Shown here piece after piece: positions 1 to 7,701 of a stretch of DNA of 7,701 nt. The notes under the pieces were generated by a model that saw only the letters and a program-made list of their open reading frames with translations, was not told the DNA's origin and made no database searches. Location: assembly GCA_964504055.1 (NCBI GenBank), contig CAZDCU010000005.1:1-7701 (forward strand). Reading direction: 5' to 3'. Every line of letters starts with the position of its first letter. Position 1 is the stretch's first letter. This DNA is from an uncultured Methanomassiliicoccales archaeon (lineage in GTDB: Archaea; Thermoplasmatota; Thermoplasmata; Methanomassiliicoccales; Methanomethylophilaceae). The position numbers and the translations under genes are program-made.

Positions 1-2394
1 TGCTGTCGGTACATCAACGAATGTGAGTATGGTGACAGATGATGAGTATTTTTCAGTGTATTTCTCACTGTTCTCTTTGGCGGCAACCTTACCTTCTGCG
101 CCTGATTTCAAAGGTGCAGCATCTGCTGTCGAAGCACGTGTGTCCACGATAGTTCCGGCAGTGTTGTCGATTGCGTATTTTTCACCTGTTGCGGATACGA
201 TCGTCGAAGTTCCTGAAAGCGTTATGCTTCCTTTGTTAGTCAGATCTCCGGCAAGGGTAACACTCGTACCGCCCGTGACCTCCATGGTCACATCTGCGCC
301 GAGTTCTCCCGAAATGCTGATTGCATCACCGGAAACCGTAACGGTAACTCCGGAGTATTCTCCGCTTGCTGTTACAGCTGTACCTGCGATGATAAGCGAA
401 CCGCCTGTGACAGTAAGACCGTCGGTTCCTGCTTTCAGACCGTTGGCGACGAGTTTGTTGTCCGCAGGTCCTTTGACTGTACCCGTGAGTACTGCACCTG
501 CTTCGAGCTTAAGTGAACCTTTGGCGGCAAGTGTAAGCGCTTTATCGTTGCTTACTGTCAAAGTCTTGTCCGCAGAGACTGTGAGAACCATGTTCTTGCT
601 GATGGTTGCATCATCTGCGAATGTGAGGTTGTTTTTCAACAATATTTCCACTTTGCCAGTAGGTGTTTTTCCGTCCAGATCTTTTGTGACAAGAGCGAAG
701 TTGCTCTCAGAGTACCAGTATTTCCAGCTGTTGCTCGATGTCGTGAAGGACATTTCGATTGCAGCGCCGGTGTAATCTACGGTAGCTGAAGCACTGTTCT
801 CGGTGTAAATCATACCGCTGAATGTACCTGTAACTGTCACTTTGTTCTCTGTAGATGCAACGGTTCCGTAGTCGACATTGACTCCTCCCCATCCGCAGTT
901 CTCAGTGGCACAGTTGTTCATAGAAACGGTGGATTTGTTTACAATAACACCGACGGCGTTGACGTTCTTGACCGTTACACCGTCCAATGCGACTTTTGCA
1001 GAGCCGTAAATGTTGATTCCGTGTTTGGCAGCTGATTTTCCGTCGATTGTAAGATTCTTGACTGTGACATTTGAACATGCATTGATTCCGATGACGTTGT
1101 ACCTGGTGCTGTTGTCGTCACCGTAGGTCCAGGAATCGGCGCATGTGATTGTCTTGTTGTTACCGTTGATTACTACACCATGAGTGATGTTCTCGAACAG
1201 CATTGTACCGGTTGTTCCGTCTCCGGCAGGAGTGATTGTAAGATCCTTCAGAATCTCGATTGTTACATCGGATGTTGCTGCGTTGGCTGCTGCAACTGCA
1301 TCTGCAAAGGTGTTGTAGTATTTGTCTCCGATTTTGGCCTCGAAACTGTCTTCGGCAGTCTTGAAAACTCCGTTGTCCAATGTGAAAGTCTTTCCTTTCA
1401 GATTGTATGCATTGATTTCAAGTTCAGTGTTTCCGACAGCGAATTTCAGACCTGTCATTTCAGTGACTTTAGTCAGTCCGTTTCCGAAGGAAATCTTCGT
1501 CAAAGCTTTATTATTTTCACAAATTGCATCGTCATAAATCCTCACTACGGAATCAGGAATCACTAAAGACGTAATCTTTTCGCTGTATGCCAACGAATAA
1601 TCCCACAGTGTGGTCACATTAGAAGGTATTGTATATTCGCCGGTTTTTCCGGGAGGACAAAGAATCAGTACAATGCCGTATGCTTTCCTAAAGGAATTCT
1701 CAGTAGTGATGACAGACCCATCTACTGATGTGTAATCCGCCTGTCCTTCGGTGACTATAATCGTAGTCAAATTAGGACAATGTGCAAAACAATTATTGAT
1801 GTCTATTCCCTTAGCATCATCACTTGCATTAGGCAGAGTAACAGAGACTAAATTATTACAATCATTAAATGCACTGGTGTAAATTTCGATCACATCGGAA
1901 AGAACCGTATATGAGTCCCCCTCCTTTGCAATAGGATACTGTATAAGCGTTTTCTTGTCGTAACTGTAAAGAACATTGTCGACTGAGACCAAACTTGTAT
2001 TGCCTTCATCTACGGTAATTGTCTTCAGAGAAGTACAACCGTCGAACGCGGAGAAACCGACAGTTTTCACAGTTTTGGAAATACTTATTGATTCAAGTTT
2101 GGAAAAATTGTGGAAAGCCCAGTTACCGATGTGGGTAACTTTGTCTCCGAGGACTACCGATGTAGCAGTGTCCTTGTAGCTGTCCCACGGAGTGGTGTCG
2201 GTCTCCAAGTAATTATCCATACAGCCTGTTTCCGACCCGATAATCGTAAGTGTTCCGGTTTTGGAATCGAAAGTAAATTCGTCGTTGGAATCATCGGCCG
2301 ACGAATCACCGACATCTGAAATAATGTACGCACATGCGACTACCGCAAGCGCAGCCACAATAAATGCGAACATAAACCTCATGTTATTTTTCAT
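1..2394 (-). CDS. Adhesin-like secreted or cell-surface protein, N-terminal 798 codons; the 3' end lies beyond the left edge. Lipobox-type signal peptide, BspA-type leucine-rich repeats, then a parallel beta-helix-like region.
   Basis: My manual reverse-strand translation from ATG 2394..2392 gives 798 codons to position 1 with no stop. The ORF is absent from the supplied track, presumably because no stop lies in the window. The N-terminus MKNNMRFMFAFIVAALAVVAC has a basic n-region, a hydrophobic core and a VVAC lipobox-like motif. Residues ~65-330 show the BspA/LRR_5 pattern (TPWDSY..VTHIGNWAFHNFSKLESISISKTVKTVGFSAFDGCTSLKTITV..VLYSYDKKTLIQYP..IYTSAFNDCNNLVSVTLP). Residues ~355-500 look like the start of a beta-helix (KIGDKYYNTFADAVAAAN..VTIEILKDL.., NVTVKNLTIDG, GINIYGSAKVALDGVTVKNVNAVGVIVNKSTVSMNNC). 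The C-terminal part is rich in T/V/G/S beta-strand repeats. GGGGTGA lies 8 nt upstream of the ATG. Confidence 0.85.
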   Translation of the reverse strand, partial: MKNNMRFMFAFIVAALAVVACAYIISDVGDSSADDSNDEFTFDSKTGTLTIIGSETGCMDNYLETDTTPWDSYKDTATSVVLGDKVTHIGNWAFHNFSKLESISISKTVKTVGFSAFDGCTSLKTITVDEGNTSLVSVDNVLYSYDKKTLIQYPIAKEGDSYTVLSDVIEIYTSAFNDCNNLVSVTLPNASDDAKGIDINNCFAHCPNLTTIIVTEGQADYTSVDGSVITTENSFRKAYGIVLILCPPGKTGEYTIPSNVTTLWDYSLAYSEKITSLVIPDSVVRIYDDAICENNKALTKISFGNGLTKVTEMTGLKFAVGNTELEINAYNLKGKTFTLDNGVFKTAEDSFEAKIGDKYYNTFADAVAAANAATSDVTIEILKDLTITPAGDGTTGTMLFENITHGVVINGNNKTITCADSWTYGDDNSTRYNVIGINACSNVTVKNLTIDGKSAAKHGINIYGSAKVALDGVTVKNVNAVGVIVNKSTVSMNNCATENCGWGGVNVDYGTVASTENKVTVTGTFSGMIYTENSASATVDYTGAAIEMSFTTSSNSWKYWYSESNFALVTKDLDGKTPTGKVEILLKNNLTFADDATISKNMVLTVSADKTLTVSNDKALTLAAKGSLKLEAGAVLTGTVKGPADNKLVANGLKAGTDGLTVTGGSLIIAGTAVTASGEYSGVTVTVSGDAISISGELGADVTMEVTGGTSVTLAGDLTNKGSITLSGTSTIVSATGEKYAIDNTAGTIVDTRASTADAAPLKSGAEGKVAAKENSEKYTEKYSSSVTILTFVDVPTA

Positions 2395-2402
2395 TTCTCT
2401 AT

Positions 2403-2409
2403 TCACCCC
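2403..2409 (-). promoter_or_regulatory. Shine-Dalgarno-like ribosome-binding site for the surface-protein gene
   Basis: The minus strand reads GGGGTGA, one mismatch from the GGAGGTGA core, followed by an 8-nt spacer (ATAGAGAA) and ATG at 2394. Confidence 0.55.
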
Positions 2410-2494
2410 TAAATACTAGTCATCATTTCGATGATATCTAGATGAATAACAAACGAACAGCATACCACGTATAATAAGTGTACCCATAAACCGA

Positions 2495-2512
2495 TTTTTT
2501 GCGCGCAAAAAA
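2495..2512. repeat. Perfect 18-bp palindrome TTTTTTGCGCGCAAAAAA in the divergent intergenic region; the A-run continues to 2514
   Basis: Read directly: T6 (2495-2500), GCGCGC (2501-2506), A8 (2507-2514). Both flanking genes point away from it, so it is not an ordinary terminator for either. Confidence 0.8.
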
Positions 2513-2590
2513 AACGCCCGTTCTCAGACAGAGAAATCCGGGTGCGGACACGGTACGACGCCCGCATACAGTTTCAGACACTCAAAGTTA

Positions 2591-2598
2591 TTTAAATA
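2591..2598. promoter_or_regulatory. Archaeal-type TATA box candidate TTTAAATA, itself palindromic so orientation is undetermined
   Basis: It matches the TTTAWATA archaeal TATA consensus and is preceded by the A-rich AAAGTTA (BRE-like). It could serve the minus-strand surface-protein gene through a long leader, or act as a second promoter for the RHH gene. Confidence 0.4.
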
Positions 2599-2614
2599 CA
2601 ATTAACTTAATTGT
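2598..2614. promoter_or_regulatory. Perfect 17-bp palindrome ACAATTAA-C-TTAATTGT; candidate operator between two TATA-like boxes
   Basis: Read directly: arms of 8 nt around a central C. It lies immediately upstream of the TTTATATC box of the RHH gene. RHH regulators typically bind palindromic or repeated operators at their own promoters. Confidence 0.5.
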
Positions 2615-2619
2615 AACGA

Positions 2620-2627
2620 TTTATATC
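2620..2627 (+). promoter_or_regulatory. Archaeal-type TATA box (TTTATATC) for the RHH gene, preceded by BRE-like AACGA
   Basis: The box centre is ~26 nt upstream of ATG 2650, and no Shine-Dalgarno lies in between (TTATAATTGTCTGTCGGGC). This geometry fits a leaderless transcript. Confidence 0.55.
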
Positions 2628-2649
2628 TTATTATAATTGTCTGTCGGGC

Positions 2650-2814
2650 ATGGCGAACAGAGAGAAGAAGGTGTCACTGAGTGTAACATTACCGCGTGAG
2701 ATGATCGAATATCTCGCATCCAAAGTCGACTCCCGTGAATTCGCAAGCTATGCCCACGGCATAGAGCTGTGCATCAGAAGGTACAAAGAAAACGAAGAAA
2801 AGAAAACCAGATGA
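2650..2814 (+). CDS. Small ribbon-helix-helix (CopG/MetJ-type) DNA-binding protein, 54 aa
   Basis: Manual translation gives MANREKKVSLSVTLPREMIEYLASKVDSREFASYAHGIELCIRRYKENEEKKTR*. It is too short to appear in the ORF track. The basic N-terminus, alternating beta-strand (VSLSVTL), P/S helix cap, helix 1 (REMIEYLASKV) and helix 2 (SYAHGIELCIRRY) align position for position with the CopG pattern KKRLTITLSESVLENLEKMA..SKSAMISVALENY. It has its own TATA box at the correct spacing. Confidence 0.7.
   Translation: MANREKKVSLSVTLPREMIEYLASKVDSREFASYAHGIELCIRRYKENEEKKTR
2786..2806 (-). terminator. Candidate archaeal oligo-T termination signal for the minus-strand hydrolase/HdrD-like transcript
   Basis: The minus strand just downstream of the stop at 2816 reads ..GGTTTTCTTTTCTTCGTTTTCTTTG.., with three T4 runs within ~30 nt. 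These are the complement of the Lys/Glu-rich tail codons of the convergent RHH gene. Confidence 0.3.
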
Positions 2815-2815
2815 A

Positions 2816-3778
2816 TCAGCGGATCGGATTCTTATGGAATTCCGATGTTGTCCTGTCTCCCGCGGCAAGACAGACCAATTCCGCTATGTACAGCACAGGT
2901 ACACCGTTTTTGTATCCGTCGTATCTCGCGAAACACGACGGACATCCGACTATCACTGCATCGGCATCTTTCATCGAATCCTGCCTTTCTTTCATCACTT
3001 CTTCGGATATTTTCGGTACCGCTTTTCCGCAGCATCCCTGTTCGGTATCTTCGATGATACATCCGCATGCTTCTACGATTTCGTCGAACATCTTCTTCTG
3101 ATGTCTCAGACCGCATCCGGGCATTGAAGCCACTCTGAGTTTCACTCCCGGCAGTTTCTTAATTTTCTCAATGTTTCTGTGTAACGGCTCGATGATGTGC
3201 TCTGTTTCGCAGACGGATGCCATTTCATCCCTGCATCCGGGGCATATGTTGTACATCCTGCCGGTGAAATCGATTTTGGAATGTTTGATTTCGTTTCTTT
3301 CGGAATCTGTCATAGACCTGAACGGTATCGGATACGTACAGCATCCGCCGTCGAATCTCTTTACGTGAATTCCTGTCAATTCCAATGCTTTCGCTGCGGA
3401 ATATTCCAGAAAAGGTGCGGATGAAACAGTCAGACATCCGGGCATGAGAACATCGTCGGAATCTTCACAGTACGGAGGTACCGGAACAGTACCTCCCTCC
3501 GCAGGAGGGAGATTGTATCCCGTTTTGTAATAAACATCTGGCACTTTCACATTACCTGCAATACATGCGGCGTACATCATGACCTTCTTCGGTACCGTAT
3601 GCTCGCATACATCGTTACATAATCCGCAGGTAAGACATCCTTTCGCTTTGGAAAGGTCGCCCTGCATAACGGCAGTGGGATCGCATCCGCCGTGACGGTG
3701 GGATGTACAGACTTCCCTGCATCTTCCGCATCCGACGCATAACGACATCAGATCGGCGATGTCTTTACGGCAGTCCAT
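2816..3778 (-). CDS. Fe-S oxidoreductase of the HdrD/GlpC/LutA type: N-terminal 2x[4Fe-4S] ferredoxin-like motifs plus two CCG cysteine-rich domains, 320 aa
   Basis: Two CxxCxxCxxxC motifs (CVGCGRCREVC, CLTCGLCNDVC) and an HdrC-like DPTAVMQ segment. Two CCG-type modules of C-x27-30-CC-x30-31-CxxC: PGC..GGCCTYP..CPGC and PGC..QGCCGKA..CPSC. The start lies 2 nt after the upstream gene's stop, with GAGGG ~12 nt upstream. Confidence 0.8.
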   Translation of the reverse strand: MDCRKDIADLMSLCVGCGRCREVCTSHRHGGCDPTAVMQGDLSKAKGCLTCGLCNDVCEHTVPKKVMMYAACIAGNVKVPDVYYKTGYNLPPAEGGTVPVPPYCEDSDDVLMPGCLTVSSAPFLEYSAAKALELTGIHVKRFDGGCCTYPIPFRSMTDSERNEIKHSKIDFTGRMYNICPGCRDEMASVCETEHIIEPLHRNIEKIKKLPGVKLRVASMPGCGLRHQKKMFDEIVEACGCIIEDTEQGCCGKAVPKISEEVMKERQDSMKDADAVIVGCPSCFARYDGYKNGVPVLYIAELVCLAAGDRTTSEFHKNPIR

Positions 3779-3780
3779 GG

Positions 3781-4332
3781 TCAGAATTCCCTCGTTATTG
3801 TATCCACATCGGAAATAACCGCACCGTAGACTTCCTTGAGATACTTCAGACCTGCCTGATAATCTTCTTCCGTAAAAGAATCCACTCCGTCTGTGGGAAC
3901 TATGATATTGTATCCTCTGTAGTAAGCGTCAGCCGCAGTGTGGCGTACGCACATGTGTGCGTGCATTCCCGTAAGAATTACAGTATCCACATTCAATTCT
4001 CTGAGAAGCATTTCCAAATCCGTACCGTAGAATCCGCTGTATCTCCTCTTCGGTACGATATAATCTCCTTCTTCGGGTTCCAATTCGGGAATGACTTTTG
4101 CGCCTTCGGTGCCTGCAATCGCGTGATCTCCCCAGAGCTTCAGCTCGTGGTCTATTCCCTTAATGTGGGCATCGTTGGAGTAAATCACGGGAACGTTGTT
4201 CTTCCTTGCTTCTTTGATTAATTTCATCAGCGGAGGAATAATCCTCTGTGCACGGTCGCATTTCAGCGAACCGGTGACGAAATCGTTCAGCATGTCCACG
4301 ATGATGATTGCCTTCTTACCGCAGTCTCCCAT
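3781..4332 (-). CDS. Isochorismatase-family cysteine hydrolase, nicotinamidase (PncA)-like, 183 aa from the preferred start
   Basis: Catalytic-triad context: IIIVDMLNDF (Asp), PKRRYSGF (Lys), LTGMHAHMCV (Cys). SNDAHIKGIDHE and LWGDHAIAGTEGA resemble the nicotinamidase metal-site and WPxHCxxxxxGA motifs (E. coli PncA: SQDWHPANHGSF, FWPDHCVQNSEGA). The track ORF extends to 4416, but those 28 extra residues overlap the upstream gene and look non-coding. ATG 4332 (MGDCGKKAIIIVD) sits ~26 nt from a TATA-like box. Confidence 0.75.
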   Translation of the reverse strand: MGDCGKKAIIIVDMLNDFVTGSLKCDRAQRIIPPLMKLIKEARKNNVPVIYSNDAHIKGIDHELKLWGDHAIAGTEGAKVIPELEPEEGDYIVPKRRYSGFYGTDLEMLLRELNVDTVILTGMHAHMCVRHTAADAYYRGYNIIVPTDGVDSFTEEDYQAGLKYLKEVYGAVISDVDTITREF

Positions 4333-4354
4333 AAACGGTGCTAAGGGCGTTGCG

Positions 4355-4362
4355 TTATTATA
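4355..4362 (-). promoter_or_regulatory. TATA-like box (minus strand TATAATAA) for the hydrolase/HdrD-like pair
   Basis: The box centre is ~26 nt upstream of ATG 4332, with no Shine-Dalgarno in the intervening ACGCAACGCCCTTAGCACCGTTT. Confidence 0.45.
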
Positions 4363-4376
4363 GGTTAACGGGGGCG

Positions 4377-4397
4377 GTGATGTCCGCAGGACATCAC
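4377..4397. repeat. Perfect inverted repeat GTGATGTCC-GCA-GGACATCAC (9-bp arms)
   Basis: Read directly. It overlaps the TGA stop (4394..4396) of the flavodoxin-like gene and lies ~14 nt upstream of the TATA-like box of the next gene. Confidence 0.8.
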
Positions 4398-4897
4398 TGT
4401 CCCGAATACCATTCAATCAACTGTTTCAGATTCTTTTCGTCAACAAGATTCTTCCCGACGGTAACCATCTCAAGTGCCAGTTCTTCTTCCGGTGTTTTAT
4501 TCTCAATGGATTCCAACTGCAGAACCATCTTCTTCAGAACGGGTTTCATGACAAATTTGTAGTAACCGTGAAGTTTCGAAGGATCGAATCCGCCCTGTAC
4601 GGTGAATACGGGAATATCTTCGGGAATCTTATCTTTCCTTCTGATATCTTCAGTCTGAGAACCCGTAAATCCCATGCACACACCGCAGACCGCTTTCACT
4701 GTGTACTTGGAATAAGCTTTGTCATATCCTTTCACGGAACCCGCTGCGACCCATCCGAGATAGATAATTTCACTCTTTTTGGAAATCTTCTCTTTTCCGA
4801 GAGGGTACACAGGAAGAGAAATCTTCTCACCGAGTATTTCCGCATACTCTTTCGTGAATCCCGTGTTTGAAGTGTAAAGAACCGCGGATACTGCCAT
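4394..4897 (-). CDS. Flavodoxin-like domain protein, 167 aa
   Basis: The N-terminal strand and phosphate-binding loop pattern AVLYTSNTGFTKEYAEIL matches the flavodoxin [ST]xTGxT motif. This is followed by IIYLGWVAAGSV and VFTVQGGFD strands, typical of short Flavodoxin_4/5-type proteins. There is no Shine-Dalgarno, and a TATA-like box lies ~23-25 nt upstream. Confidence 0.65.
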   Translation of the reverse strand: MAVSAVLYTSNTGFTKEYAEILGEKISLPVYPLGKEKISKKSEIIYLGWVAAGSVKGYDKAYSKYTVKAVCGVCMGFTGSQTEDIRRKDKIPEDIPVFTVQGGFDPSKLHGYYKFVMKPVLKKMVLQLESIENKTPEEELALEMVTVGKNLVDEKNLKQLIEWYSGQ

Positions 4898-4916
4898 AAT
4901 GTGTCATTGATAACTG

Positions 4917-4923
4917 ATTATAT
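4917..4923 (-). promoter_or_regulatory. TATA-like box (minus strand GGATATAATC context) for the flavodoxin-like gene
   Basis: It is centred ~23-25 nt upstream of ATG 4897. The intervening CAGTTATCAATGACACATT lacks a Shine-Dalgarno. Confidence 0.4.
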
Positions 4924-4930
4924 CCGCATA

Positions 4931-4955
4931 TCGGAGCGGGCGGAGCCCGCTCCGA
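4931..4955. repeat. Perfect GC-rich 25-nt palindrome or hairpin TCGGAGCGGGC-GGA-GCCCGCTCCGA
   Basis: Read directly: 11-bp arms with a 3-nt centre. It starts 4 nt downstream of the ATPase stop (4959..4961) and ends ~7 nt upstream of the TATA-like box of the flavodoxin-like gene. No U-run follows it on the transcript. Confidence 0.8.
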
Positions 4956-4958
4956 ATA

Positions 4959-5702
4959 TCACAGAACTTTGGAAAGGAATTCTTTCAGGCGTGCGTTCTG
5001 CGGGTTGCCGAATAACTCCGAAGGAGTGTTCTCTTCCGCAATCACACCGTCGTTGATGAAGAACACACGATCGGAAATCTCTCTTGCGAATCCCATCTCA
5101 TGTGTAACGATAAGCATCGTCATACCTTCTTTGGCCAAATCCTTGATTAAAGAAAGTACCTCACCGACCATTTCCGGGTCCAATGCGGACGTAGGCTCGT
5201 CGAATAACATCACATCCGGATTCATAGCCAGCGCACGGATAATTGCGATACGCTGCTGCTGTCCTCCGGACAGTCTCTGCGGACGCTGGTCCGCTTTATC
5301 CGATAAACCGATTCTTGCAAGCAGTGCTTCCGCTTTATCCGATGCTTCCTCTTCCGTCATAAGTTTTAACTGAGTCGGTGCTAACATGATGTTCTTCTTC
5401 ACCGTCATGTTCGGGAAGAGATTGAACTGCTGGAACACCATTCCGATCTTCTGACGGATTTTATTCACATCCACGCCTTTGGCAGTAATCTCGGTACCTT
5501 CAAAGAAAACAGAACCGCCCGTAGGCTCTTCGAGAAGATTCAGAGAACGCAGGAACGTGGATTTACCGCATCCGGAAGGACCGATAATGGAAATTACCTC
5601 CCCTTTCCTTATCTGCGCATCGATTCCTTTCAGAACTTCATGTTCGCCGAAAGATTTGCGGAGATTTCTTACTTCAATCAGTACATCCGAATCAGATTGC
5701 AT
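4959..5702 (-). CDS. Polar amino-acid ABC transporter ATP-binding protein (GlnQ/ArtP-like), 247 aa
   Basis: Walker [11 protein letters not shown]-loop [12 protein letters not shown] signature [15 protein letters not shown], Walker [14 protein letters not shown]-loop IVTHEM. The start overlaps the permease stop by 11 nt, and GGAGG lies 10 nt upstream of the ATG. Confidence 0.93.
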
Positions 5703-6390
5703 TTGCGTTCAGCCTCCTTTCAAGTCTGTGCACCAATGCGGTGAGTGCCATCACCATAATCAGATAAATCAATGCAATTCCGAGCAACGGAACCATTGCC
5801 TGATATGTGAACGACATGATAATTTCGTACGATTTCGTTAATTCGACAACACCGATTACGCCGCAGATAGACGTCTCCTTCAGAAGACTGATTCCTTCGT
5901 TACACAATGCGGGAAGAATATTCTTCACCGCCTGCGGTAAGATGACCGTTGTCATCATCGCACCGAAGGACAGTCCCAAACTTCTCGCAGCCTCGAACTG
6001 ACCTGTAGGTACTGCGTTGATACCGGAACGTACAATCTCCGCAACGTAGGCTGCGGAGTTTAAACCGAATGCAAGTGAACCTGTTATCAGCGGGTTCACT
6101 CTGAATCCGATTACGTTCGGCGTAAGCACGACGAGGTAGATGATAAGAAGTTGAACCATCACAGGGGTACCGCGTATTACCGTAATGTACGCCTTGCAGA
6201 TGATGTTGAGGATCGGCAGTTTTCCGTTTTTATCGTGGATTGTTCTTACGGTTGCAATCAGTACACCCAAAATCAATCCAAGAATCAGCGCCATCACCGT
6301 GAGGATAATGGTGTTTTCAAGACCCTGCAATACGTACTCCCAACGGTCGTTGTAGATGAATGCATTGTAGATATCGTCCCACAAAGACAT
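5692..6390 (-). CDS. Polar amino-acid ABC transporter permease (His/Glu/Gln/Arg/opine family), 232 aa
   Basis: Multi-pass hydrophobic protein with the EAA-loop region [31 protein letters not shown] and the [10 protein letters not shown] motif typical of this permease family. GAGGAGAGG Shine-Dalgarno lies upstream. Confidence 0.9.
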
Positions 6391-6417
6391 CGAATCTGCC
6401 TCTCCTCATTGTTTTAT

Positions 6418-7245
6418 TCAGGCTTTTGTGATGATGACCTGCACCGATGTCTTATAGGGGTCGGTGAAATCTACATTCGCTTTCCTTTCATCGGTAACTG
6501 TCATACCTGCCGCAATGACATAGTTTTCTGATTCATCGCTGACCTGAATCTGACCGATGAGTGCATTGAAATCCATACTCTTGACTACAAGCTCCATCTT
6601 GAGCTTTGAAGCAATTGCCTGCATAATGTCAACATCCATTCCGACAATTGTTCCGTCTCCGTTGTCATTGAAGTATTCATAGGGCGGGAAATATGCTTCT
6701 GTAATCATATTGAGTTTTCCGCCGGTGTAATCCGTGTCCTCCCTAACGTACTTCTCTCCGACTCCGTCTTCGTAGTACTTTATAATTTTTTCAAGTGTAC
6801 CGTCACCCTTAATCTCTGCCAATGCACCATTTACTTTGTCGAGAAGGGTCTTATTATCTTTCTTAACCGCAATTGCATAATCCTCTACAGCGAAATTTGT
6901 GTCAAGAATCTTCAGTCCGCTGTTCTTCGCAACAAATGTCTTTGCAGGCTGGTCGTCAATGATAACACAATCGACATGTCCCTGATTCAGTGCATCTATT
7001 GCGAATGCTCCAGAAGTGTAAGCCTTGACATCAGTGTTACTACTCAGCTTACCGTCTTCTATATACTGGCGGGCGAATGTCTCTCCAGTGTATCCTTTCA
7101 CAACACCGACAGTGGCTCCGTTGAGATCTTCGAAATTCTCAATCTTCTTTGAACTGCCTCCGTTGTTCATTGCGAGTGCAATACCGACCGCAGCAACGAT
7201 TACTACAACAACCGCTGCAATTGCGATGATCTGTTTCTTCTCCAT
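6418..7245 (-). CDS. Amino-acid ABC transporter substrate-binding protein (family-3 type) with an N-terminal membrane anchor and apparently circularly permuted domain order, 275 aa from the preferred start
   Basis: The track ORF extends to 7371, but GGAGG (7258..7254) lies 8 nt before ATG 7245 and 2 nt before ATG 7251, and the hydrophobic anchor (QIIAIAAVVVVIVAAVGIALA) starts right after MEKK. The first 40 residues of the ORF look non-coding. Family-3 motifs are all present but in swapped order; see finding 1. There is no lipobox Cys. Confidence 0.85.
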   Translation of the reverse strand: MEKKQIIAIAAVVVVIVAAVGIALAMNNGGSSKKIENFEDLNGATVGVVKGYTGETFARQYIEDGKLSSNTDVKAYTSGAFAIDALNQGHVDCVIIDDQPAKTFVAKNSGLKILDTNFAVEDYAIAVKKDNKTLLDKVNGALAEIKGDGTLEKIIKYYEDGVGEKYVREDTDYTGGKLNMITEAYFPPYEYFNDNGDGTIVGMDVDIMQAIASKLKMELVVKSMDFNALIGQIQVSDESENYVIAAGMTVTDERKANVDFTDPYKTSVQVIITKA

Positions 7246-7303
7246 TGTCATTTCCTCCGAAATGGAATTGGCCCATATTGGAAAATAATACGTATAAGGG
7301 TTG

Positions 7304-7374
7304 TCAGACCGCCCCGTAATGAAAACAACAGGGCGTCTGAAACCCGACATCCGTATGCCGTCTTCAGACATACG
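7304..7374 (-). promoter_or_regulatory. Structured intergenic leader or promoter region with three overlapping inverted repeats upstream of the ABC operon
   Basis: TCAGAC(C)GCCC 7304..7314 pairs with GGGCGTCTGA 7331..7340 (10 bp, one bulge). GTCTGAA 7335..7341 alternatively pairs with TTCAGAC 7363..7369. CGTATG 7352..7357 pairs with CATACG 7369..7374. An AT-rich TATA-like stretch at 7281..7297 lies between these repeats and the Shine-Dalgarno. Confidence 0.4.
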
Positions 7375-7389
7375 AATCGTAGAGTTTAA

Positions 7390-7701
7390 TCACTCGCGGA
7401 TAAGTTTTTTACCGTCCGAGAATGCCCTGCCCACTTTGCCTTTTATCTCAAGGTAGTCGTGGTTTAAGCCGTCGTACACGATGGGTCTGAGTTTGGACAC
7501 ATCCACCTTCCCGTCGGTCAGAATCGATTCGTCGACGGATACGTTGACAATCTTTCCGATAAGCTCTTCGTTTTCGTAGCTTTTGACGGTACATTCGACG
7601 GACATCTTCAGTTCCTGAATAATCGGAGCGTCTACGAATTCGCTCTTTACTGCGGTGAATCCCGCTTTCGCGAACTTGTCTTTTACGTCGTTTCCTGAAA
7701 C
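7390..7701 (-). CDS. Flavin reductase-like (FMN-binding split-barrel) protein, C-terminal 103 residues; the 5' end lies beyond the right edge
   Basis: The reading frame stays open from 7701 through the track's ATG at 7605: VSGNDVKDKFAKAGFTAVKSEFVDAPIIQELKMSVECTVKSYENEELIGKIVNVSVDESILTDGKVDVSKLRPIVYDGLNHDYLEIKGKVGRAFSDGKKL. This matches the C-terminal half of flavin-reductase-domain proteins (SG.DVDKF...G.T...S..V.AP.I.E....LEC.V......IG.IV....DE..L...G..D..KL.P..Y....Y...G). Confidence 0.7.
   Translation of the reverse strand, partial: VSGNDVKDKFAKAGFTAVKSEFVDAPIIQELKMSVECTVKSYENEELIGKIVNVSVDESILTDGKVDVSKLRPIVYDGLNHDYLEIKGKVGRAFSDGKKLIRE

Follow-up and report, generated by a model that had tools for sequence, protein, structure and literature searches.

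Family-3 substrate-binding proteins such as GlnBP, HisJ, LAOBP and the binding domains of GlnPQ are standard models for ligand-induced closure, importer coupling, ancestral reconstruction and biosensors. In GlnBP the large domain comprises residues 5–84 together with 186–224, the small one residues 90–180, with hinges at 85–89 and 181–185 (PMC7400645). The canonical linear order runs from the N-terminal part of lobe I through hinge 1, lobe II and hinge 2 to the C-terminal part of lobe I. Here we analyze a stretch of 7,701 nucleotides from an uncultured Methanomassiliicoccales archaeon (GenBank assembly GCA_964504055.1, contig CAZDCU010000005.1, positions 1–7,701; hereafter the window), which carries on its minus strand a gene for a family-3 binding protein (6418..7245, 275 amino acids plus stop). 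An earlier note on this DNA had proposed that the protein is a natural circular permutant, in which the segment that opens canonical proteins (A) follows the segment that closes them (B). Natural permutation is known in other binding-protein families, of which the family-3 case is independent. From the evidence presented below we consider it very likely that the protein is a true family-3 circular permutant that serves as the binding subunit of a PAAT-type ATP-binding cassette (ABC) importer.

The glucose-binding protein Tp0684 (MglB-2) of Treponema pallidum is permuted and represents ‘Type Ic / Cluster Bc’ (PMC4990184). It retains ligand binding and closure, and permutants of its type occur among the tethered proteins of treponemes and Gram-positive gut commensals; the permutation is common to Gram-positive gut bacteria and has tentatively been tied to tethering (PMC4990184). 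Like the family-3 protein, MglB-2 is a natural permutant of an ABC binding protein and is encoded in an operon with a permease and an ATPase. Unlike it, MglB-2 is a type I / cluster B sugar binder with no sequence homology to the family-3 protein, and the movement of three N-lobe strands has created a fourth crossover, whereas the number of crossovers is unchanged in the family-3 permutant. A second group, the circular-permutation set of Lo & Lyu 2008 (PMC2395249), contains OpuAC/ProX, the molybdate-binding proteins and CysB, which are type II (two-crossover) folds related via circular permutation. OpuAC (2B4M) was the second-best sequential Foldseek match of our structural model (template-modelling score [TM] 0.43, ~11% identity), but OpuAC/ProX belong to PF04069 rather than PF00497 and their link was found structurally only, whereas permuted and canonical family-3 proteins are ~60% similar (derived from a neighbour-joining tree). 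Arginine sensors for Förster resonance energy transfer that are based on AncQR are engineered permutants, as indicated by titles cited in PMC7683729, and unlike the present protein are man-made. We found no prior description of a natural family-3 permutant in a literature search for which most subscription journals were outside reach. The permutation may be undescribed for this family, and the earlier note likewise was aware of no description; there was none in the literature found and none among the listed PDB and NCBIfam matches.

The swapped order is evident in every profile and PDB sequence comparison listed here, apart from one tandem-domain match. The protein matches PF00497 (SBP_bac_3) with 98.9 bits (cut-off 26.4, E 2.5e-28) in two non-collinear stretches. 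Among the NCBIfam models, positions 119–248 of TIGR01096 (LAO model) match residues 31–157 of the protein, and positions 27–117 of the GlnH model match residues 178–274. The profile matches are split into a C-terminal half that comes first and an N-terminal half that comes second, which is the pattern that the note had predicted. Sequence searches of the PDB (best 60 of 91 and best 60 of 92 matches, respectively) gave the same picture: residues 33–157 align with GlnBP 99–219 and LAOBP 105–232, and residues 177–275 align with GlnBP (1ggg) 4–96 and AncQR 6–104. Both halves are homologous to GlnBP (1GGG/1WDN), LAOBP, HisJ, Thermotoga maritima ArgBP and AncQR (4ZV1). Chance is excluded, because the E-values of these alignments lie between 1e-28 and 1e-67, down to 4e-67 with a profile.

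Every PDB match among those listed was split or partial, except the tandem substrate-binding domains SBD1-SBD2 of Lactococcus lactis GlnPQ (6h30). This was the only collinear match listed, and in it the query covers one half of each domain, the second of SBD1 and the first of SBD2. No solved chain with the B-A order was present among the best 60 of 92 PDB matches, no dedicated model for the permuted form was among the NCBIfam matches of the protein, and the canonical linear order was found in none of the comparisons listed. By these alignments the binding protein has the B-then-A order, and the proposal of a natural permutant of the family-3 fold is borne out by the split Pfam, NCBIfam and PDB alignments alike. 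As in described natural permutants, N- and C-terminal parts are exchanged and, in our alignments, the exchange is conserved throughout the clade; the listed PDB sequence matches are all of family-3 type, with no homology to the described permutants.

The ends of the chain were used to locate the site of the permutation. The last residue of the protein aligns with GlnBP 96 and the first mature residue with GlnBP ~99, and the C-terminal end point is identical in 42 of 42 aligned B-A proteins. Set against the hinge limits of GlnBP, these alignment ends place the cut in a loop within lobe II, after the first strand of that lobe and between GlnBP 96 and 99, with both crossovers kept. Hinge strand 1 corresponds to residues 264–268 (YKTSV, with Y264 invariant) and hinge strand 2 to residues 119–123 (AVEDY, with Y123 invariant). 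The note had placed the end of the chain at the first crossover strand, leaving the lobes joined by a single hinge strand, which is not supported, as both segments are present. Its attachment of the membrane anchor to lobe II is upheld. In this mapping lobe I becomes one contiguous segment (residues 124–263, connector included), and lobe II is split into an N-terminal part (residues 33–118) and the last seven residues. Because both chain ends derive from one short loop, they must adjoin each other on lobe II.

Going by profile coordinates, the permutation site appears to coincide with the loop where glutamate receptors carry their channel (the S1/M1 junction): residues 226–275 (6421–6570) match PF10613 (S1 of ionotropic glutamate receptors, iGluRs) weakly, with 24 bits where the cut-off is 30, and this match stops at position 112 of the 115 in the profile and within about three positions of the C-terminus. 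In a functional EhuB-GluR0 chimera, EhuB was opened at K132/N135 (bioRxiv 2021.01.27.428399), a site that our EhuB profile alignment puts a few residues beyond the position matched by the end of the protein. In relatives of the B-A-transmembrane domain (BA-TMD) type the S1-like segment A leads into a membrane domain, as S1 leads into M1 in iGluRs and GluR0. The permutant has the reversed order and no insertion, in contrast to the receptors, which keep S1 before S2 and carry the channel inserted between them. The permutation site is in addition a naturally validated spot for reporter insertion or fusion of a partner.

The gene was delimited directly from the sequence of the minus strand, on which all features of the protein lie. 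The start codon of the binding protein (MEKKQ) is at 7245–7243 and the stop codon at 6420–6418. A Shine-Dalgarno-like GGAGG (7254..7258) precedes this start codon with a spacing of 8 nt, and the orthologues P0004, P0012 and P0016 likewise start at MEKKQ in the alignment, which makes the ATG at 7245–7243 the most plausible start of the open reading frame (ORF). Another 42 open codons (7246–7371), outside the conserved protein, lie 5′ of the likely start, and several database gene calls of 317–319 amino acids (P0002, P0003 and P0121) use an upstream ATG. The N-terminal membrane anchor or signal segment (7150..7245, residues 1–32) consists of KK, a hydrophobic helix of 21 residues and NNGGSS; AlphaFold 2 (AF2) places a helix at residues 7–24 with a low predicted local distance difference test score (pLDDT). 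The anchor of the archaeal clade is free of Cys and without a lipobox, and the Clostridia relatives carry a lipobox L-x-[AG]-C in the alignment.

Segment B (6772..7149, residues 33–158) aligns with GlnBP 99–219, LAOBP 105–232 and AncQR 107–228. It comprises most of lobe II (residues 33–118), hinge strand 2 (6877–6891) and, at residues 124–158, a strand and two helices with which lobe I is completed; its residues D97, P100 and Y123 are invariant in an alignment of 42 B-A proteins. The B-to-A connector (6718..6771, residues 159–176) bridges the canonical C- and N-termini across lobe I. Segment A as a whole spans residues 177–275 (6421–6717). Its lobe I part (6457..6717, residues 177–263) aligns with GlnBP 4–84 and holds the alpha-carboxylate site G247/T249/R254 and the aromatic residues F186 and Y189, and it is followed by hinge strand 1 and the C-terminal beta-strand (6421..6456), which align with GlnBP 85–96. 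The C-terminal strand, belonging to lobe II, is formed by residues 269–275 (QVIITKA). The coordinates that the note had given for segment B, the linker and segment A are exact with respect to the ORF translation.

Structure prediction with AF2, using the 42-sequence alignment, yielded a model with a mean pLDDT of 88.9 and a predicted TM score (pTM) of 0.80, in which confidence is low only in anchor residues 1–29. The connector reaches a pLDDT of 93–97, and the model ends in one continuous strand at residues 265–274. A sequential Foldseek search of the model against the PDB gave a maximum TM of 0.46, with the GlnPQ tandem, OpuAC and LysR effector domains as the top matches, a low value that is expected for a permutant. 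In a control search, a B-A-B relative matched canonical GlnBP, ArgBP and AncQR over their full length (TMt 0.6–0.73, E ~1e-26), and these matches fall in the part of the relative that consists of A and the second B (A-B2).

Across the relatives, the lengths of the junctions between the segments distinguish the two phases of the domain. In BA-phase proteins the B-to-A junction has an interquartile length of 20–21 amino acids (range 17–32, n = 401) and the A-to-B junction one of 5–10 (range −3 to 44, n = 122), and in AB-phase proteins the B-to-A junction ranges from 10 to 91 amino acids (n = 15) and the A-to-B junction has an interquartile length of 1–3 (n = 50). The linker between SBD1 and SBD2 of GlnPQ is flexible and 14 amino acids long, and 11 amino acids longer in homologues (PMC8025302). 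The junction lengths agree with this linker, and the constant B-to-A length identifies the connector as an intradomain element of the permuted unit. It is not the floppy ‘acidic linker’ suggested earlier, in view of its conserved length and high pLDDT. In BA-phase proteins only a few residues separate the signal peptide or lipobox from the start of B, and A ends directly before the stop or the permease; the BA-P, BABA-P and BABABA-P fusions to the permease (P) are likewise B-first after the signal peptide and A-last before the permease. With B at the start and A at the end there is no room for missing halves, and the alignments indicate that the B-A phase is genuine.

An alternative arrangement of the same halves would be an obligate domain-swapped dimer or oligomer, in which B of one chain pairs with A of another and no monomeric Venus flytrap is formed. 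Swapping of elements is common in this fold and swapped elements are reported for engineered circular-permuted constructs of ribose-binding protein (PMC10601554); moreover, a B-A-B relative is modelled with its first B unpaired, and the monomeric packing is an AlphaFold prediction. However, the connector, of conserved length and high confidence, sets A beside the lobe I elements of the same chain, each unit in the (BA)n-TMD fusions has its own connector, and the permuted binding protein of T. pallidum is a monomer (PMC4990184). We regard obligate swapping as improbable.

The residues of the ligand site are retained in the permuted protein. In the alignment G247, T249 and R254 correspond to GlnBP G68, T70 and R75, which contact the alpha-group of the ligand (PMC7400645), and A246 and F186 correspond to A67 and F13. 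G247, T249, R254, D97 (of the IDxxP motif) and F186 are invariant in the 42 B-A proteins, in agreement with the ligand-contact motifs that the note had recognized. On this basis the ligand is likely an alpha-amino acid.

The earlier note treated the gene as a one-off, but it turned out to be a member of a very large clade, with relatives in at least 587 bacterial and archaeal species genomes in a scan of one genome per species. The best 120 homologues comprise 83 B-A, 33 B-A-B, 1 A-B-A and 3 A-B proteins. We examined 80 loci out of these genomes, and found BA-phase genes in all 80, nearly all from Clostridia, namely Lachnospiraceae, Oscillospiraceae, Ruminococcus, Roseburia and Blautia; cultured carriers include Acetitomaculum ruminis DSM 5522, Parasporobacterium paucivorans DSM 15970 and Kineothrix sp. 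MSJ-39. Together with 16 orthologue clusters of the same order, this establishes that the B-A order is kept in a clade, and both tandem and 1.5-domain relatives exist. A stand-alone B-A gene is present in 57 of the 80 loci, upstream of a permease and an ATPase in all but two, and an in-frame fusion of B-A to the permease occurs in ~22 of the 80. Longer fusions are exemplified by B-A-B-A-permease (L022 1685–4006) and B-A-B-A-B-A-permease (L026 4282–7401).

In a library of representatives at 50% identity, 3028 clusters match the B-A profile at E ≤ 1e-30. Among the best 149 of these, a ranking that favours BA-phase and multi-unit proteins so that the counts are not a census, 111 are regular BA-phase proteins and 84 of those are permease fusions, with one unit in 4, two in 5, three in 48, four in 23, five in 2, six in 1 and seven in 1. 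The largest multi-domain permease fusion is P0141 (2009 amino acids), and P0143 and P0152 are further examples. In the literature found, the two-domain GlnPQ is the only tandem array described. The relatives resemble L. lactis GlnPQ (6H30), the best collinear sequence match, in the N-terminal fusion of single or tandem binding domains to the permease; the archaeal binding protein itself, unlike GlnPQ, is not fused. GlnP is in the A-B phase, with the arrangement signal-A-B-A-B-TMD and a flexible B-to-A linker of 14–25 amino acids (PMC8025302), whereas in the relatives, arranged as signal-B-A-(B-A)n-TMD, the B-to-A connector is fixed and the A-to-B junctions vary.

Other architectures were observed beside the regular ones. 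Binding proteins of 1.5 domains (B-A-B, ~390–404 amino acids) are represented by P0022 (L084–L090), P0018–P0047 and L083 6001–7170. P0022 is identical on contigs of seven independent sequencing runs, which demonstrates that the 1.5-domain form is real in at least one lineage; as far as the contigs extend, LuxS lies upstream, followed by the B-A-B gene, the permease and the ATPase. In the AF2 model of the B-A-B form, which has low global confidence (pTM 0.48), A is paired canonically with the second B and the hinge strands of the first B are unformed, and the A-B2 part of P0022 is up to ~90% similar to free-standing canonical proteins. Many metagenomic B-A-B proteins carry a near-identical canonical A-B block on differing N-termini and were first taken for chimeras. 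P0029 and P0084 share 195 identical N-terminal residues and then diverge, and odd-form metagenomic pairs in general show long identical stretches that diverge at conserved motifs. These two proteins, and P0043, P0046, P0049, P0053 and P0055 (A-B-A and b-A-B forms), may be natural recombinants of permuted and canonical genes or assembly chimeras. At L063 8348–10681 (minus strand, Ruminococcus), a canonical A-B operon adjoins, and is convergent with, a BA-permease operon, so that both topologies coexist in one genome; a frameshift or stop apparently divides the BA-permease gene at this locus into B and BA-P.

The authenticity of the gene was assessed from its orthologues. These form 16 clusters (at 90% identity) with 56–99% identity to the protein, all of full length and with the same order, and occur in NCBI, ENA, JGI and Logan assemblies, including one at 99% identity. 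An independent archaeal contig of 54 kb, which also encodes ribosomal protein L44e and a diphthamide synthase, carries the genes for the binding protein, permease, ATPase, 167-aa ORF, isochorismatase-family protein and CCG/Fe-S protein in the same order as the window. The ratio of non-synonymous to synonymous substitution rates (dN/dS, Nei-Gojobori) relative to the orthologue on that contig is 0.26 overall, 0.35 in B, 0.26 in A and 0.04 in the anchor. The low overall ratio sustains the view in the note that this is a functional gene rather than a scrambled pseudogene.

These data also bear on the possibility that we are dealing with the decaying remnant of a tandem A-B-A-B gene, a protein whose two half-domains do not fold together and form no working binder. 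Such an origin would fit the collinear match to GlnPQ SBD1-SBD2 (the only one listed, with half of each domain covered), and tandem-domain relatives are common. Yet both halves are under constraint according to their dN/dS values, the end points and ligand residues are the same in the 42 aligned proteins, 78 of the 80 loci retain an intact, syntenic operon, AF2 models the protein as a single compact unit, and the BA-P fusions offer no space for the missing halves. A decaying fragment is strongly disfavoured and to our judgement very improbable. That the B-A order stems from faulty assembly or gene calling, as the short metagenomic contig and the chimera-like look of some related architectures (P0029/P0084 and the A-B-A and b-A-B forms) could suggest, has practically negligible probability given the 99%-identical protein and further orthologues in independent assemblies, the identical gene order on the 54-kb contig and the collinear B-A genes in genomes of Clostridia isolates; the assembly error that the note had named as an outcome to be considered is not borne out.

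The protein is thus very likely a working permuted binding subunit; several observations weigh against parts of this reading. The A-L-A motif behind the hydrophobic segment is a possible signal-peptidase site, so that the tethering may not be permanent. The two-lobe packing of the permutant is predicted from AlphaFold confidence and homology. In a mean-field direct-coupling analysis of the C-terminal strand versus lobe II (279 non-redundant BA units, effective number of sequences [Meff] 184), the top pairs were gap artefacts at indels, and no independent support for contacts came from it. Assignment of a substrate by NCBIfam equivalogs was rejected, with all scores far under the cut-offs: the best equivalog scores were 114.5 bits for TIGR01096 (cut-off 256) and 89 bits for GlnH (cut-off 303), and none of the specific equivalogs (GlnH, ArtJ/ArtI, HisJ/ArgT, cystine TcyJ/FliY, EhuB) reached its cut-off, the matches being split or partial. 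Canonical A-B proteins interleave with B-A proteins at ~60% similarity in a rough, subsampled neighbour-joining tree, so that a single origin is not established, and the change could have run from AB to BA or the reverse.

With the permutant reading the gene product would act as the extracellular, membrane-tethered binding subunit of a PAAT-type importer of polar amino acids. The chain would begin in a surface loop of lobe II, build most of that lobe and recross via hinge strand 2. The strand and two helices found at the end of canonical proteins would form next, and from there the connector of ~20 residues would reach the usual N-terminus. Finally, the chain would build the rest of lobe I, cross hinge strand 1 and finish in the strand needed to complete the sheet of lobe II. 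Because the amino-acid site between the lobes is kept along with both hinges, binding of an alpha-amino acid by lobe closure and delivery to the permease are expected to proceed as in canonical proteins. The anchor would be attached to lobe II, where in the relatives the next domain or the permease would also be joined. The protein is like canonical family-3 proteins in its ligand-contact residues, its types of permease and ATPase and its two hinge segments. It is unlike them in its swapped halves, with new termini in a lobe II loop and the old termini joined by the connector, in having lobe I contiguous and lobe II split (the reverse of the canonical case) and in carrying the tether on lobe II instead of lobe I.

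The most likely origin of the permutation is a tandem array of A-B-A-B domains whose reading phase shifted through loss of the leading A and the trailing B. The collinear tandem match and the (BA)n arrays fit such a route of duplication followed by truncation, and a tandem of the GlnPQ type is likely the kind of ancestor. The interleaving of A-B and B-A proteins suggests repeated or recent interconversion. The archaeal proteins form a small clade with Clostridial B-A proteins as nearest relatives (44–49% identity), and the archaeal gene was probably acquired from gut Clostridia.

Tentatively, and as a reading that we hold a shade short of probable when its four parts are taken jointly, the B-A-phase domains may constitute a large unnamed topological class of cluster-F amino-acid-binding domains. 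This class would predominate among the top-scoring multi-domain importers found here, with 3–7 tandem domains per permease. It would coexist and interleave with A-B and with B-A-B/A-B-A forms, as a living stepwise record of permutation by duplication and deletion. Its breakpoint would be the lobe II loop that holds the ion channel in glutamate receptors, and it would have crossed from gut Clostridia into methanogenic archaea. In a rare constellation, the canonical form, the permuted form and possible intermediates have all survived and are highly similar in sequence. With the permutant at hand, the influence of connectivity and tether position on folding, closure kinetics and permease docking can readily be tested. 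Long ‘beads-on-a-string’ arrays may use this phase because neighbouring termini allow a single point of attachment for each domain. Databases and annotation pipelines treat such proteins as ordinary, and split matches hide the topology in hundreds of transporters of gut bacteria.

The binding-protein gene is followed on the same strand by the other components of the importer. A PAAT-family ABC permease of 232 amino acids (5692..6390, minus strand; PF00528 67 bits, TIGR01726 76.2 bits with a cut-off of 42.2) is the sole permease gene of the cluster. A GlnQ-like ABC ATPase of 247 amino acids (4959..5702, minus strand; PF00005 133.8 bits) overlaps the stop of the permease, and has as its best NCBIfam match GlnQ with 311.8 bits, under the equivalog cut-off of 379. 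All three genes of the operon that the note had described as intact are present, and in 78 of the 80 genome loci the same permease gene comes after the B-A gene or forms a fusion with it.

Three genes lie 3′ of the ATPase (2816–4897, minus strand) and occur in the same order in an archaeal orthologous locus with 68% identity (L081 10365–12426). They encode a flavodoxin-like ORF of 167 amino acids, for which no family scored above cut-off, a hydrolase of the isochorismatase family (PF00857, 164 bits) and a Cys-rich CCG/4Fe-4S protein of 320 amino acids that is 67% identical to a protein of a Candidatus Methanomethylophilaceae archaeon. This identity, with the L44e and diphthamide synthase genes of the 54-kb contig, marks the host as a Methanomethylophilaceae-like archaeon of the Methanomassiliicoccales type, from gut or rumen. 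The three genes may form a functional cluster and provide a clue to the transported compound. At the left end of the window, an open frame of at least 805 amino acids (1–2415, minus strand) extends past the end, which accounts for the seeming lack of genes at 900–2800 and for the absence of a listed ORF at 900–2400. The product combines an N-terminal signal or anchor with BspA-type leucine-rich repeats (LRR_5, E 4.9e-23) and an adhesive domain of pectate-lyase-like type, and looks like an adhesin-like surface protein.

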